From Candidatus Limnocylindrales bacterium (GTDB taxonomy: Bacteria; Chloroflexota; Limnocylindria; Limnocylindrales; CSP1-4): a stretch of DNA of 64,000 bases. The translations under genes were made by a program, and so were the position numbers. The notes beneath the pieces were generated by a model that searched no databases, was not told the DNA's origin, and saw only the letters and a list, made by a program, of their open reading frames with translations. Where the stretch lies: positions 2,235 to 66,234 of the forward strand of contig JBBRNM010000004.1 of NCBI GenBank assembly GCA_038230295.1, read 5' to 3'. Shown here piece by piece: positions 3,843 to 23,760 of this stretch. Within the stretch, counting starts at the first letter, position 1, and every line of letters starts with the position of its first letter.

Positions 3843-5945
3843 GGCCGACAGTCATGTCCGGCAGGTCGCGGCGGGGCGGCTGGAACGGAACCTCTCGGTG
3901 TTCTGGAGCGTAGACACCAGAGAGACAGGTATTCGGAGGCGCGGATCACGGCAGGCGGGATCGCAAGCGAAGTCAAGAGCCGGCTGAACATCGTCGACGT
4001 GGTCGGCGAGACAGTGCAGCTGAAGAAGGCGGGCACCACCTACAAGGGACTCTGCCCGTTCCACGGCGAGAAGACGCCGTCGTTCACGGTCACCCCGGGC
4101 CGGGACTCCTGGAAGTGCTTCGGCTGCGGCCTGGGCGGCGACGTCTTCAGCTTCGTCATGCAGCGCGACTCGGTGACCTTCCCTGACGCGTTGCGAACGC
4201 TCGCCGCGAAGGCCGGCGTCGAGATCGACGAGCGGACCAAACGCGAGGATGCCCATCGGGCCCGACTCCGGGATGTCTTCGAGACCGCGATCGCGTTCTA
4301 CCACCAGGTGCTGACCGCCACGACCGTCGGCGCGCCGGCCCTGGACTACCTCCGCGGCCGCGGCTTCAGCGACGCGACGATCGAGGCCTTCCAGCTCGGC
4401 TGGGCGCCGGAGGGCTGGGACGTCCTGAGTCGCAAGCTCGTCGAGAAGCGGGCGATCAAGCCCGATGAGCTCGTCGAGGTCGGCCTCGCGTCGCCCGGCC
4501 GCTCGCAATCTCGCGGGGTCGGCATCATCGACAAGTTCCGGGGCCGCGTCCTGTTCCCGATCCGGGATCAGAACGGCGCGGCGGTCGGCATGGGCGGCCG
4601 TATCCTCGGTTCCGAGTCGGAAGCGAACGAGCGCGCGGCGGCCGCCGGTCGCACCGCAGGGCCCAAGTACCTGAACTCGCCCGGGACGCCGCTCTTCGAC
4701 AAGAGCCGGACGCTGTACCTCATCGATAAGGCCAAGACCTCGATCCGGAAGTCGGGCCAGGCGGTGATCGTAGAGGGCTACACCGACGCGCTGATGGCCC
4801 ATCAGGCCGGCTTCGACAACGTCGTCGCCTCCCTCGGCACGGCGCTGACGCCGGGGCAGGTCGGCCTGCTGACGCGCTACGCGAAGCGGATCGCGCTGGC
4901 GTACGACGTCGACGCCGCGGGCCAGAAGGCCGGCACGTTCGGCGTCCAGGCCCTCCAGGGTCTGATCGGCCAGCTCGCCGCGACGGAGAGCGGCATCGAG
5001 CTCGACGAGGTCCGCGTCGTTCGTCTGCCCGACGGCAAGGATCCCGACGAGGTCCTCCGCGACTCGCCCGACCGCTGGCGCGAGGAGGTCCGGACCGCGC
5101 AGCCGATCGTCGAGTACCTCATCGATACCTACTCGAGGACGTACGACCTCAAGACGCCGGGTGGCAAGGCTCGCTTCGTCGATGCCCTGATGCCGACGAT
5201 CCGGGCCGTTCCGAACCCGGTCATGCGCGACGCCTACCTCCAGCAGGTCCGCCAGACCTCCGGCGTGGAGGAGCGGATCCTCCTCGAGGTGTTGCGGGGC
5301 ACCCGGCTGGGCGGCGCGTCCGGCCTCGCCACGATCGCGACAGGTCAAGGCGCCTCGGGCAATCGACCGGCGACCCGGGACGGCGGCTTCTCGGCCGATG
5401 CCGTCATCTCGTCCGCGGATTCGCTCCCGGTCGGCGACATCCTGCGCGGCGTCCTGCCGCAGGAGGCGGAGCTCCTTCGCCTGATCCTGCTGGTCCCCGA
5501 GATCCAGCTCAAGGTCGTCGACGAGATCGGTCCGGACCAGCTCCCGAGCACCGTCGCCCGCGAGCTCTTCAAGGCCGTGGTGTTCGCCAGGGAACCCAAC
5601 GACGAGGGCGTGCATCCGCCGTTCAGCCTGACGGGGCTCGTTCAGTCGCTCGATCCCGAGACGGCTGCCCTGGCCCAGGCCGTCCTCGCTCGCCGCGACC
5701 CGAACCCGAGGGAGCTGACACAGGCGGACCTCGCCTACGAGATCGAGCGACTCACGATCGATCTCGAGGAACGGGCTCTCGACGAACGCTCCGAATACCT
5801 GCAATCCGCCCTGGCCGAAGCCGAGCAGACCGGCGACCGAGACTCGGTCGACCGCCTCTCGCTCGAAGGCCAGGCCATGAACGACCAGCGGCGCTCGCTC
5901 CATCGACGCCGCGACCAGACCAAGCTCATCACCGCCAGGAGGTAG
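3837..5945 (+). CDS. dnaG: DNA primase DnaG
   Basis: Zinc finger [30 protein letters not shown]; TOPRIM region [17 protein letters not shown]. The ORF-track start is TTG 3837, but the homology-expected N-terminus ([20 protein letters not shown]) begins at ATC 3945, preceded by GGAGG, so the true start is uncertain. Confidence 0.9.
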
Positions 5946-20086: not shown

Positions 20087-21097
20087 TCAGGAGCCCTCGC
20101 TGCGGACCATGGCGATCGCGTTCTCGAGTCGAAGCTTCGCGATGGTCAGGTACTTCGCCAGGTTCGCCCGGTCCACGGCCCCGATCGACATCACGACATC
20201 GGGTGACCGAAGGACGTCGAGGACGGCCTCGACGCCATCCGCGAGCTGCTGCTTGGCGGTGACGAGCGAGTCGTCTCGGAGCGGTGCTGCGGCCTTGCGC
20301 CGGCCGGTCCATGCGGCGTCCGCCTCCGCCTCCGTGTCGTCGGTCGGCTCCCCGACGGCCGTGTTGTCGTTCTCGATTGCGACGACCGATCGCGGCCGGC
20401 GACCCTCGATCTTCTCGCGCAGCTTGATGAGCGTCAGCTCGCCCCGAGCCACCTGATCCGTCAGGCGCTTCCGCTTCTTCGGGTCCTCGATCTTCATCAG
20501 CTCGTAGGCGTGCGAAAGGGTGTCTTTGCGCAAGGACACCAACTCTCGAACCTCTGCAGGCGCGTCGGCGAGCCGCAGCCGGTTCTCGAGGTAGCCCTTG
20601 TCCTTGCCGAGCTTCTGAGCGAGCTTCCGCACCGAGTAGCCATGTTCGTGGACCATGCGGTCGAACATACCGGCCTCGTCGAGGGGCGAGAGATCCTCGC
20701 GCTGGAGGTTCTCGATGATCGAGATCTCGAGCGCGGTGTCGTCGTCGATGTCCTCGACGAGTGCCGGGATGGTGGCCAGGCCGGCGACCTTGGAGGCTCG
20801 CCAGCGCCGCTCGCCGGCGATGAGCTGGAACTGATTGTCGTCCAGCGGCCGGACGAGGATCGGCTGCAGAACGCCGTGCTCCCGGATGGACGCGGCAAGC
20901 TCCTCGATCGTCGATTGGTCGATGACCATCCGGGGCTGCTGCGGGTTCGGGACGATGCGATCGACGTCGATGGTTCGGACACCGCGCGACGAGCGACCCT
21001 GGCGATCGTTCGACAGGAGGCTGACGATGGCGGGAGAGAGCTCACGCTCCTCCGAGAGGCGACGCGCGGCCGCCGCGCGGAAATCAGTTCTGGCCAA
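20087..21097 (-). CDS. parB: Chromosome partitioning protein ParB (Spo0J family) with a divergent HTH and a long C-terminus
   Basis: IVPNPQQPRMVIDQSTIEELAASIREHGVLQPILVRP...LIAGERRWRASKVAG (GERR arginine patch). Start placed at TTG 21097 (GAGGTGG upstream), overlapping the parA stop by 14 nt. The track start at 21157 is less likely. Confidence 0.9.
   Translation of the reverse strand: MARTDFRAAAARRLSEERELSPAIVSLLSNDRQGRSSRGVRTIDVDRIVPNPQQPRMVIDQSTIEELAASIREHGVLQPILVRPLDDNQFQLIAGERRWRASKVAGLATIPALVEDIDDDTALEISIIENLQREDLSPLDEAGMFDRMVHEHGYSVRKLAQKLGKDKGYLENRLRLADAPAEVRELVSLRKDTLSHAYELMKIEDPKKRKRLTDQVARGELTLIKLREKIEGRRPRSVVAIENDNTAVGEPTDDTEAEADAAWTGRRKAAAPLRDDSLVTAKQQLADGVEAVLDVLRSPDVVMSIGAVDRANLAKYLTIAKLRLENAIAMVRSEGS
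20520..20539. repeat. Palindromic motif copy A: GTGTCTTTGCGCAAGGACAC (inside parB)
   Basis: Read directly. It is the exact reverse complement of copy B and encodes VSLRKDT of ParB. Confidence 0.9.
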
Positions 21098-21854
21098 GGT
21101 CGACCACCTCCCGGGCAAGCTCGCGATAGGTTCGTGCCGCCTCCGAGTGGCCGGCATAGACGGTGATGGGTCGGCCCACGAGCGGCGCCTCGCCGAGCTT
21201 TACCGTCGTGCGAACGATCGACGTGAAGACATGGTGATCGCCCACCACGCGGAGCTCTTCGAGCATGTCCCGTGCCAGGTTCGTGCGACCGTCAAAGAAC
21301 GTGGGCAGGAGGCCCAGGATCTTGAGCCGGCGGTTGAGCTTGAGGCGAATCGCGTTGATGACCTTGACGAGGTTGTTCAAGCCCTTCATCGCGTAGTACT
21401 GCGTCTGGACCGGGATGATGACGCCGTCGGCGGCGACGAGTCCGTTCACCGTGAGCAGGCCGAGGTTCGGTGGGCAATCGATGAGGGCGTAGTCGTAGCG
21501 TTTTCGCAGCCGACCATCGAGCGCGTCGCGGAGGAGTGATTCGCGACCCAGCATCGTGAACAGCTCCCCTTCCGTCGCGGCGAGGTCGATGTGCGACGGC
21601 GCGACGTCGATCCCCTCGGTCTCGGTCGCGCGGATGATCTCGTCGATCGTCGCCCGGCCCACGAGCACATCGGCCATCGACGTCTCGACCGTGTTTAGAT
21701 TGATGCCGAGTCCTGCGGTGAGGTTCGCCTGCGGATCCATGTCGATGCACAGGATGCGAAGGCCGTCTTCCGCGAGCGCCCCCGCCAGGTTGATCGTCGT
21801 TGTCGTTTTGCCGACCCCGCCCTTTTGATTGGCGATTGCGATCACGTTGGTCAC
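21084..21854 (-). CDS. parA: Chromosome partitioning ATPase ParA/Soj
   Basis: Deviant Walker [24 protein letters not shown] start with GAGGTGAG upstream. Confidence 0.95.
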
Positions 21855-21972: not shown

Positions 21973-21981
21973 TTATCCACA
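21973..21981 (+). promoter_or_regulatory. DnaA box, perfect consensus TTATCCACA
   Basis: Read directly in the parA/pccB divergent intergenic region, 119 nt upstream of the parA start. Confidence 0.6.
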
Positions 21982-22005: not shown

Positions 22006-22014
22006 TGTGGATAG
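22006..22014 (-). promoter_or_regulatory. DnaA box in inverted orientation (TGTGGATAG = CTATCCACA, 8/9)
   Basis: Read directly, 24 nt from the first box, so the two boxes face each other. Confidence 0.55.
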
Positions 22015-22100: not shown

Positions 22101-22120
22101 GTGTCCTTGCGCAAAGACAC
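22101..22120. repeat. Palindromic motif copy B: GTGTCCTTGCGCAAAGACAC (pccB leader or first codons)
   Basis: Read directly; 20/20 reverse complement of copy A. Confidence 0.9.
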
Positions 22121-22142: not shown

Positions 22143-23696
22143 GTGCCGACGAATGATGAACGACTCGCGCGGCTGGATGAGATGCGCGCCGAATCGCTGC
22201 TCGGTGGCGGTCCGGCGCGAGTCGAGCGCCAGCACGCAGCCGGGAAGCTCACGGCGCGGGAGCGAATCGAGCTCCTGCTCGACCCGGATTCATTCGTCGA
22301 ACTGGACGCCTTCGTCACCCATCGCTCGACGGACTTCGGACTGGCCGATCAGCGTCCGCTCGGCGATGGGGTCGTCACCGGACACGGCGCAATCGATGGT
22401 CGCTCGGTCTTCGTCTTCAGCCAGGACTTCACGGTGTTCGGTGGTTCCCTCTCGGAGGCATACGCCGAGAAGATCTGCAAGGTCGTCGACCTCGCGATGA
22501 AGGTCGGCGCGCCAATCGTTGGACTCAACGATTCCGGAGGCGCCCGAATCCAGGAAGGCGTCGCGTCGCTCGGCGGCTACGCGGAGATCTTCCTGCGCAA
22601 CGTGCTGGCGTCAGGCGTGATTCCGCAGATCTCCGTCGTCCTCGGGCCGTGCGCCGGCGGGGCCGTCTATTCGCCGGCGATGACCGACTTCACCGTGATG
22701 GTCGAAGGGACGAGCTACATGTTCGTGACCGGTCCCAACGTTGTCCGCACCGTGACCCACGAGGAGGTCGACTCCGAATTTCTCGGAGGCGCGATGACCC
22801 ATACGACGAGGAGCGGCGTCGCGCATCTGGCCGCGGCCGACGAAGCCGAAGCGCTCGCCGCCGCGCGACGACTCCTTGGCTTCTTGCCATCGAACAATCT
22901 CGAGCGACCACCGATCGTCGAGACACAGGATCCGCGTGATCGGATGGATGCTGCGCTCGACGCAGTCGTTCCCGACGACGCCGCAACGCCCTACGACATG
23001 CACGAGGTCATCCGGCGCGTCGTCGACGACGGATCGTTCTTCGAGATCCAGCCGGGCTGGGCCGGCAACATCCTGATCGGCTTTGCGCGACTGGGCGGTC
23101 GAGCCATCGGGATCGTCGCGCAGCAGCCGGCCGTCCTTGCTGGGGCGCTGGATATTGATGCATCCGTGAAGGCCGCCCGGTTCGTCCGAACGTGCGATGC
23201 ATTCAACGTCCCGATCGTGTCGTTCGTCGACGTGCCGGGATTCCTGCCCGGCGTCGGGCAGGAGCACGGCGGCATCATCCGCCACGGGGCGAAGCTGCTC
23301 TACGCGTACTGCGAGGCAACGGTTCCCAAGCTGACCGTGATCACCCGTAAGGCTTATGGCGGCGCCTACGACGTCATGAGCAGCAAGCACATTCGCGGCG
23401 ACATGAATTTCGCCTGGCCGAGCGCGGAGATCGCCGTCATGGGCGCCGACGGCGCCGTCGCGATCATCTTCAAAAATGAGATCGCGGCCGCCACGGATCC
23501 TGAGGCGGAGCGGCGGCGCCTCGTCGTGGATTACGAGCGGCAGTTTGCGAACCCCTACATTGCGGCGGCCCGCGGTTACGTGGATGCGGTGATCAAGCCG
23601 TCGGAGACCCGGCCGCGGCTCATCGCCGCCCTGGAGATGCTCGCCGACAAGCGGGACGCCAACCCCAGGAAGAAGCATGGCAACATCCCGCTGTAG
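22143..23696 (+). CDS. pccB: Propionyl-/acyl-CoA carboxylase carboxyltransferase (beta) subunit
   Basis: [50 protein letters not shown]...[11 protein letters not shown]. Start set at GTG 22143 by homology; ATG 22095 or ATG 22074 are possible. The track ORF start at 21825 is rejected. Confidence 0.9.
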
Positions 23697-23697
23697 G

Positions 23698-23717
23698 CCG
23701 TCTTTGCGCAAAGACGG
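23698..23717. repeat. Palindromic motif copy C: CCGTCTTTGCGCAAAGACGG (perfect 20-bp palindrome)
   Basis: Read directly. It starts 2 nt after the pccB stop codon. Confidence 0.9.
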
Positions 23718-23760
23718 TGGCGGCAGGTGACGGTGGCGGCAGGTGACGGTGGCTGCGCCT
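23713..23760. repeat. 16-nt tandem repeat, about 3 units (GACGGTGGCGGCAGGT x2 + GACGGTGGCTGCGCCT)
   Basis: Read directly. The first unit overlaps the right arm of palindrome copy C. Confidence 0.85.

Follow-up and report, generated by a model that had tools for sequence, protein, structure and literature searches.

A probable second ParABS-type module, with a palindromic site putatively its own, on the main chromosome of Limnocylindria

Within a 64-kb stretch of DNA from Candidatus Limnocylindrales, an uncultured soil bacterium of the class Limnocylindria (64,000 nucleotides of contig JBBRNM010000004.1, positions 2,235 to 66,234, referred to throughout as the window), two overlapping genes, parA2 and parB2, encode a ParA-type ATPase and a divergent ParB, and are accompanied by three copies of an 18-bp palindrome (sites A, B and C; Table 1). 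Sequence comparison indicates that parA2-parB2 is probably a second ParABS-type module on the main chromosome, beside a canonical origin-proximal ParAB/parS system. The palindrome is very probably the cognate site of ParB2, because it is unique in the genome to this locus, its positions are conserved, the copy within parB2 (site A) is under selection at the DNA level, it tracks the type of reading head carried by ParB2, and a related palindrome accompanies the nearest plasmid ParB. The textbook bacterial centromere is ParB-parS, whose specificity has been regarded as near-invariant on chromosomes; in the present case an entire class of bacteria abundant in soil and freshwater retains the canonical system and appears to add a second, orthogonal one far from the origin. 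That each chromosome carries two orthogonal centromeres, the plasmid-derived one sited at about three quarters of the distance to the terminus and linked to DnaA through a conserved box, is a possibility that we advance only tentatively.

The window has a 16-mer, GTCYTTGCGCAARGAC, at three places: 20522-37 is site A, 22103-18 site B and 23700-15 site C. This amounts to six strand matches (three sites) against 0.39 expected from shuffles of the window. The three copies lie within 3.2 kb and, allowing up to one mismatch, are the only ones in the 2.44-Mb assembly to which the window belongs (GCA_038230295.1; genome G000 below). Ten further Limnocylindria genomes (2.1-3.9 Mb), which were checked for both partition systems and scanned for the palindrome with up to two mismatches, have two to four copies each, all at the orthologous locus. 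In a set of 80 species-level orthologous loci (ParB identity 64-96%; the contigs of many measure 1-2.3 Mb), the three sites are syntenic in about 70, and the spacing from B to C is alike, at 1.6-1.7 kb, in the loci of families f1 and f4. When sites B and C, both non-coding, are drawn as a logo (69 and 70 loci, respectively), an 18-bp unit emerges, YGTCYTTGCGCAARGACR, beyond which the information falls to zero; it is this lack of information in its flanks across the 69 loci that marks site B as non-coding.

Site A permits a separate test, for, as an earlier note on this DNA had pointed out, it encodes V-S-L-R-K-D-T (16-mer 20522-20537). Codon usage at this site was counted in 53 orthologues. 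Its valine is GTG in 53/53, though GTG makes up 21% of valine codons gene-wide; its serine is TCY in 53/53, and TCG, the commonest serine codon, never appears there; its leucine is TTG in 39/45 (5.8% gene-wide), its arginine CGC in 53/53, and its lysine AAA in 40/53 (10% gene-wide). Rare codons are thus fixed at site A, and selection therefore acts on the DNA and not on the protein alone.

Some local variation surrounds the array. Directly after site C the window has a 16-nt tandem repeat, TGGCGGCAGGTGACGG (about 2.5 copies, 23716-23755), which starts with the right arm of the palindrome; it is lineage-specific, because the flanks of site C carry no information in the 70 orthologous loci. A fourth copy of the palindrome lies about 1.6-2.7 kb beyond site C in G007, G058 and G139 (genus g2), and one is also present at L048:12901, so the size of the array is not fixed at three. 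ParB2 loci (67-75% identity) were also encountered on contigs of 4-9 kb (L023, L034 and L074), each with at least one palindrome and L034 with three; these contigs, binned into Eisenbacteria, Verrucomicrobiia and Methylomirabilota metagenome-assembled genomes, are most likely Limnocylindria contamination introduced in binning.

Across the class, the palindrome goes with one type of ParB2 reading head. Our class-wide survey covered 151 Limnocylindria genomes of families f1 to f5, a palindrome match being defined by at most one mismatch. The palindrome is present in all 44 f1 genomes and in 43 of 50 f4 genomes (two of the seven without it also have no ParB2 match), and in none of the six f2 genomes; f3 has it in 2/49, as single matches at chance level, and the one f5 genome (1/1) also has a single match. 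Taken together, f1 and f4 have it in 87/94 genomes and f2 and f3 in 2/55, and a reversed control pattern was found in 0/151. In the loci examined from these families, the ParB2 heads of f1 and f4 read LA(D/E)AP...VSLRKDT(L/I)SHAYEL or near variants; those of f2 read L(M/I)HAP...VAERSDTISHAYEL, with the helix-turn-helix (HTH) segment AERSDTISHAYEL, and those of f3 and f5 LAxAP...QRYDTLSAAYEL or near variants. The co-occurrence that the earlier note had proposed to survey is therefore seen essentially with the f1/f4 head type. Candidate sites in f3 were also considered and set aside: GTCTTGCGCGCAAGAC, at the site-C position in two f3 loci, is scattered and near noise genome-wide, and the near-palindromes GAACCTCGCGAAGTTC and GTCGCGCAGCGCTAC within f3 parB2 are single-copy, consist of preferred codons and were treated as chance.

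The reading head itself was placed by alignment. With HMMER, the HTH of ParB2 aligns gap-free to Noc (7NG0/7NFU) and to Thermus Spo0J (1VZ0); Caulobacter ParB (6T1F) was matched as well, the placement of residues resting on the Noc and Spo0J alignments. Numbering is that of Caulobacter ParB in Jalal et al. 2020 (PMC7383237), transferred via the Caulobacter ParB sequence. At positions 173/179/184/201, where ParB has R/T/A/G and Noc has Q/K/K/R (PMC7383237), ParB2 has K/R/D/S, as the earlier note had assigned by eye, and so belongs to neither set. R173 and G201 are reported to be absolutely conserved in ParB orthologues (PMC7383237); the K and S that ParB2 has instead are at least 90% conserved within its family. 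Further changes affect residues that contact DNA in both ParB and Noc, which include Q162, G170, K171, S172, N178 and R204 (PMC7383237): ParB2 retains G170, K171 and N178, and carries Q162V, S172D and R204Y. Judged from these alignments, the reading head of ParB2, GKDKGYLENRLRLADAP...SHAYEL, is non-canonical; the HTH string quoted in the earlier note, GKDKGYLENRLRLADAPAEVRELVSLRKDTLSHAYELMKI, is present as written, and the comparison with ParB, Noc and KorB that it had called for gives non-canonical specificity positions and a far weaker match to KorB. By HMMER the best match in the PDB is Geobacillus Noc 7NG0 (1.7e-41), with Spo0J at 4e-37 and KorB at 6e-16.

The site can also, tentatively, be set in register with parS. 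When the half-sites of parS (TGTTTCAC), the Noc-binding site (NBS; TATTTCCC) and the ParB2 palindrome (GTCTTTGC) are compared by aligning their dyad centres, all three have TT at positions 3-4 and C at position 7. Positions 1 and 6 separate parS from NBS and are read by residues 173 and 201 (PMC7383237). The ParB2 site has a third base at each of these two positions (T and G), and ParB2 has a third residue at 173 and 201 (K and S).

Outside the reading head, ParB2 retains the features expected of the family over most of its length. The parB2 open reading frame covers 20087..21157 if translation starts at the first ATG, and 20087..21097 if it starts at an in-frame TTG; the TTG at 21097 is the likely start, given that orthologues have 336-340 aa and are conserved from residue 2 onward. 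Pfam recognizes ParB_N (3.3e-35) and HTH_ParB (1.2e-16), and NCBIfam parB_part gives 161 bits against a cut-off of 58. The three CTP-binding boxes are present as QPR (I), GERRWRA (II) and ENLQREDL (III), and P55 R56, G95-A101 and E129-L136 do not vary among 34 orthologues that are 65-92% identical to the window protein; the arginine patch GERRWRAS was thus correctly read in the earlier note, and it belongs to a CTP pocket whose boxes are invariant. Equally invariant in these orthologues are M1, R3, D5, F6, R7 and A10-E16 of an N-terminal arginine-rich peptide. In an AlphaFold (AF2) model (confidence score, pLDDT, 78 overall), residues 40-232 superpose on parS-bound Caulobacter ParB 6T1F with a target-normalised template-modelling (TM) score of 0.81-0.84, residues 233-256 form a disordered acidic linker, and residues 277-333 form an all-helical three-helix domain (pLDDT 87), which has no Pfam domain and, taken alone, no structural match in the PDB. 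The long C-terminus with an acidic linker that had been remarked on earlier is real, with about 105 aa past residue 232; the canonical paralogue is shorter, at about 287 aa in total.

The earlier note had taken a canonical parS to be absent. This is true of the 64-kb window, where none was found within three mismatches near the locus, and untrue of the genome: contig C99 of G000 has TGTTTCACGTGAAACG plus a second near-canonical parS 148 bp away, and contig C42 has a canonical ParA/ParB pair followed by gyrB. This canonical ParB1 reads GERRVRA...GRARSTVANTLRLLDL...GHARAL, has the usual C-terminal motif at its end and keeps R173 and G201; its partner ParA1 is 46% identical to ParA2. The ten other genomes each have a canonical ParB with an adjacent canonical parS, and dnaA lies 22-55 kb away. 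With the canonical pair present in G000 and in ten others, the ParAB of the window is therefore an additional, second system and not a replacement. Accordingly, of the two parts of the earlier proposal, that of the palindrome as cognate site is strengthened (by its uniqueness, conservation, codon selection and co-occurrence with the head), and the tie to an absent canonical parS is broken. Almost all of the 151 class genomes give two ParB matches, one of them 49-100% identical to the window protein, and a ParB2-grade match is found in about 145 of the 151, including f2 genomes of 1.0-1.4 Mb. As for the arrangement of the canonical system in G000, both canonical parS sites are at the extreme end of C99 (5384-5547) and parA1 starts 210 nt into C42, so that the two contigs are probably adjacent in the chromosome; in other genomes some 1.1-1.5 kb separate canonical parB from the parS cluster, which is on the side of parA1.

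These results bear directly on the idea of a replacement centromere, in which the palindrome and ParB2 would be the sole chromosomal partition system of Limnocylindria. Such a replacement would account for the lack of a canonical parS in the 64-kb window and for a palindrome that is typical of the class; it is refuted by the canonical parS and ParA/ParB (GERRVRA, GRARSTVANTLRLL, GHARAL) of G000, by the canonical loci near dnaA in all ten other genomes examined and by the two ParB matches found nearly class-wide. Binning contamination as the source of the canonical loci is excluded in the six genomes in which both systems share a contig, and we regard replacement as next to impossible.

The same six genomes, two of which are single-contig assemblies (G154, 3.1 Mb; G095, 2.09 Mb), fix the position of the second system, as the parAB2 locus lies with dnaA and canonical parS on contigs of 2.1-3.1 Mb. 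The distance from parAB2 to dnaA is 0.77-1.32 Mb, or 125-153 degrees. Gene-strand bias in twenty 20-kb samples of G095 is plus at about 0.62-1.25 Mb and minus at 1.35-1.98 Mb, which places the terminus near 1.3 Mb, across the circle from dnaA (0.27 Mb); ParB2 is encoded at 1.08 Mb, about 77% along one replichore. GC skew, computed for the window and for twenty 20-kb samples from G095, was too weak to place origin or terminus.

Among the 1.84 billion representative proteins in which relatives were searched, the ParB2 family is sharply bounded, its members having GKDKGY(L/I/V)ENRLRLA(D/G)AP...SHAYEL in common; a wider clade around it has GK(G/S)KGY..(N/D)RLRL and RPDTLxH, and beyond that stand proteins with the canonical GKSR...GHARAL. 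No plasmid record covers 80% of ParB2. The nearest annotated relative is the plasmid ParB of Ca. Chlorohelix allophototropha (NZ_CP128402.1; 45% identity across the N-terminal and HTH domains, GKDKSYIENRL), and on this 241-kb plasmid GTCTGTATATACAGAC occurs exactly twice, 37 and 121 nt behind parB. The plasmid system is like that of the window in its GKDK(S/G)Y(I/L)ENRL motif, a ParA upstream, and an 18-bp palindrome next to parB with outer arms TGTCT...AGACA; it is unlike it in the central 8 bp (GTATATAC versus TTGCGCAA), in having two tandem sites behind parB, and in its shorter C-terminus. Though a single case, the plasmid palindrome supports the pairing of protein and site as well as a plasmid-type ancestry. 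Most likely, a partition system of plasmid type gave rise to the module, having become fixed in the chromosome ahead of the diversification of the class. Of separate interest for the plasmid, the perfect palindrome TGTCTGTATATACAGACA occurs at L090:3793-3812 and 3877-3896, 84 bp apart and nowhere else in NZ_CP128402.1, and is likely the parS of a Chloroflexota plasmid partition system.

A plasmid ParB as closest annotated relative and a location away from the origin would also suit an inert relic, that is, the decaying remnant of the partition system of an integrated plasmid or chromid with no present function. Decay is difficult to reconcile with catalytic and DNA-binding motifs that are invariant across the 34 orthologues, with retention of a ParB2-grade match even in streamlined genomes, with selection on the synonymous positions of site A, or with the lack of stops and frameshifts among the ParB2 matches listed, and we consider a relic highly improbable.

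Comparison with known systems helps to delimit what is new. For the Streptomyces coelicolor plasmid SCP1, experiments show that the operon of ParB1 and that of ParB2 are each surrounded by three inverted repeats, including one within parB, to which the respective ParB binds; both proteins are spreading CTPases without cross-reaction with chromosomal parS (preprint 10.64898/2025.12.10.693275). The present module resembles SCP1 ParAB1/ParAB2 in its small Soj-type ParA, its three system-specific repeats including one in parB, and its coexistence with canonical parS; it is unlike them in standing on the main chromosome, in being conserved class-wide, in its site sequence and its DnaA box, and in being known from sequence alone. 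With canonical ParB/Spo0J and parS TGTTNCACGTGAAACA (Bacillus, Caulobacter, Thermus) it shares domain order, predicted fold and 35-40% identity, a 16-18-bp palindrome with the TT..C core in register, and a ParA upstream; B. subtilis spo0J has a parS site inside the gene, as ParB2 has site A. ParB2 differs from canonical ParB in K/S at 173/201, V/D/Y at 162/172/204, an all-helical C-terminal domain, and a locus that is 125-153 degrees away from dnaA and not next to the origin, in a genome that has a canonical copy too.

Noc of Firmicutes, the best-scoring match of ParB2 in both the PDB and NCBIfam, is likewise a ParB paralogue that coexists with ParB and is re-specified at the same four positions, but ParB2 has K/R/D/S there, three clustered sites and not many dispersed NBS, a dedicated ParA, and a host in the Chloroflexota. 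Identity with Noc was accordingly rejected: TIGR04285 gives 194 bits, below its cut-off of 315, there are two to four sites at one locus, and a ParA is adjacent. Vibrio cholerae ParAB2/parS2, the replicon-specific systems of Burkholderia and Deinococcus ParB2/ParB3 offer precedents for a second ParAB with its own parS beside a canonical system; unlike the present case, in which both systems are on one chromosome and no replication initiator gene is nearby, these serve separate replicons. For the Vibrio and Deinococcus systems, cross-talk with replication initiation is described (PMC3141006, PMC7671480). The literature yielded no description of a Limnocylindria ParB/parS, or of two ParABS systems on one chromosome, in a search that was thin on subscription journals.

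The locus is further distinguished by DnaA boxes in the spacer between parA2 and pccB, the divergently transcribed neighbouring gene. A perfect box is found at the equivalent place in 69/69 orthologous loci having site B, and most f1 loci have a second box at a start-to-start spacing of 33-35 nt; in f4 a perfect box is present in 9/10 loci and a one-mismatch box in the tenth, 34-35 nt from site B. Altogether, 810 kb of loci contain 132 box matches, and 126 of these are within the 300 bp adjoining site B. In G000 the composition predicts 2.5 perfect boxes and two are present, so that a single box is unremarkable; its conservation is what stands out; only three places in this genome have two boxes within 300 bp. 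In the f2, f3 and f5 loci, neither a DnaA box near parAB2 nor the palindromes were found. The sequence pattern suggests that DnaA may control the parAB2 promoter or may itself be a component of the complex. A second replication origin was considered and rejected, there being only one or two boxes, no AT-rich unwinding element, no initiator gene, and housekeeping neighbours. Outside the window, contig C36 of G000 has four GTGGAT-type box-like elements in about 110 bp (C36:12290-12400; TTATCCACG, CGTGGATAA and two CGTGGATGA), the first two facing each other at 32 nt start to start, as compared with 33 nt upstream of parA2; this cluster may be the origin or another DnaA-regulated promoter.

A different weight could be placed on the boxes by taking the locus for a DnaA-binding checkpoint or titration site (compare datA/DARS, Vibrio crtS and the Caulobacter centromere), where ParA2 and ParB2 would modulate DnaA and not move DNA. 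The box in 69/69 f1 and 9/10 f4 loci, its disappearance together with the palindromes in f2, f3 and f5, the scarcity of perfect and paired boxes in G000, and the conserved relative distance from dnaA in six genomes all agree with this idea. One or two boxes, however, fit a DnaA-regulated promoter better than titration, an AT-rich unwinding element and a nearby initiator gene are lacking, and a conserved whole ParABS apparatus would be superfluous for a mere DnaA site. The idea is moreover compatible with a partition role for parAB2 and would not replace it; as an explanation by itself we give it a slim chance.

The main rival to partition is a regulatory role like that of KorB, in which ParB2, possibly with ParA2, would mainly be a CTP-dependent repressor of its own operon and of the propionyl-CoA carboxylase/methylmalonyl-CoA operon, with the palindromes as operators. 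KorB is a ParB-family CTP clamp, 8QA8/8QA9 are among the structural matches of ParB2, and its Pfam family gives a borderline match (23.3 bits, where the cut-off is 22.3). Site B, moreover, stands between the divergent parA2 and pccB, some 25 nt ahead of the probable start of pccB, site C is in the pccB/accC spacer, and two families from different orders have both preserved the synteny with pccB. An operator at a promoter leaves site A, in a coding region with rare codons, unexplained. Nor would a repressor of this kind account for a full ParA partner that is 46% identical to chromosomal ParA and always adjacent, or for f3 and f5, which keep ParA2/ParB2 beside what looks like a tRNA gene and without pccB; the KorB match (6e-16) is also far weaker than those to ParB and Noc (1e-36 to 1e-41). 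No KorA-like small gene was seen among the neighbours examined. A sigma-70 promoter scan of the spacer found no promoter-like hexamers, a scan that is weak and uninformative for this phylum. On balance we hold the KorB-like role to be unlikely, although it deserves more credit than any other rival.

For the partition reading that we prefer, the following mechanism seems the most likely. ParB2 dimers would recognize the 18-bp unit at sites A, B and C via the re-specified HTH, bind CTP, close into clamps and slide over a few kilobases around the sites; ParA2 would act on this complex through the conserved arginine-rich N-terminal peptide; the pair would position or segregate a region at about three quarters of the origin-to-terminus distance; and the DnaA box or boxes between site B and parA2 would probably let the replication initiator control the operon or the complex.

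Several points weigh against this reading. Binding by ParB2, its CTP dependence and spreading, the interaction with ParA2, segregation, the role of DnaA and the plasmid ancestry are all things that we infer, in uncultured organisms. The canonical dimerisation domain of ParB has a strand-plus-helix fold, which is not present in the C-terminal domain of ParB2, and with so different a C-terminal fold the formation of clamps is an assumption. Families f2, f3 and f5 keep ParA2/ParB2 with no palindrome found (palindrome scans of ten of their loci, within 5 kb to either side, gave nothing recurrent), so that ParB2 may be site-independent or have a different role. The genomes are related and hence non-independent samples, and the co-occurrence of palindrome and head probably reflects only two or three evolutionary events. 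The position of the origin was deduced from dnaA and a crude sample of strand bias, and we know of no role that requires a centromere about 140 degrees from the origin. Finally, pccB being bracketed by sites B and C, with B about 25 nt before its start, is an operator-like arrangement too.

Should the tentative reading of two orthogonal centromeres hold, a late-replicating region would be segregated or positioned separately, in a manner coupled to the state of the replication initiator, and the head variants of f2 and f3 would recognize other sites, forming a natural series on the evolution of ParB specificity. What would be new in the ParB2 system is its 18-bp site, its reading head and its C-terminal domain: a third natural ParB specificity beside parS and NBS, changed again in sister lineages. 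The module would also present a case of two ParABS systems that share a DNA molecule and must be insulated from each other, a possible connection of DnaA with a centromere away from the origin, and a new orthogonal ParB/parS pair for DNA-labelling tools.

Table 1. Features of the parA2-parB2 locus, in window coordinates
Feature	Position	Strand	Description
parB2	20087..21097	minus	336-aa divergent ParB; ParB_N, HTH, acidic linker, helical C-terminal domain
site A, TGTCTTTGCGCAAGGACA	20521..20538	none	within parB2; encodes VSLRKDT in HTH region
parA2	21084..21854	minus	256-aa Soj-type ParA ATPase; KGGVGKT; AAA_31 6e-63
DnaA box (perfect), TTATCCACA	21973..21981	plus	119 nt upstream of parA2 start codon
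second DnaA box (8/9), CTATCCACA on minus strand	22006..22014	minus	faces first box across 24 nt
site B, TGTCCTTGCGCAAAGACA	22102..22119	none	parA2/pccB divergent spacer; ~25 nt before probable pccB GTG start (22143)
pccB (carboxyltransferase)	22143..23696	plus	bracketed exactly by sites B and C
site C, CGTCTTTGCGCAAAGACG	23699..23716	none	perfect palindrome; 3 nt past pccB stop, 66 nt before accC start

The genes around the module are housekeeping genes. The start of parB2 is overlapped by parA2 by 14 nt; after pccB come accC, a gene for a BCCP protein and methylmalonyl-CoA mutase, and msrA, an acyltransferase gene and a UbiA-family gene complete the set of neighbours. In f3 and f5 a conserved sequence, GGGCCCGTAGCTCA, stands upstream of parA2; from there to the GKDK codons of parB2, further downstream, is about 1.4 kb (L106, L108, L109 and L110). 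From its sequence it looks like the 5' end of a tRNA gene, and it is found where f1 and f4 have pccB, so that the neighbourhood of parAB2 differs in f3 and f5.

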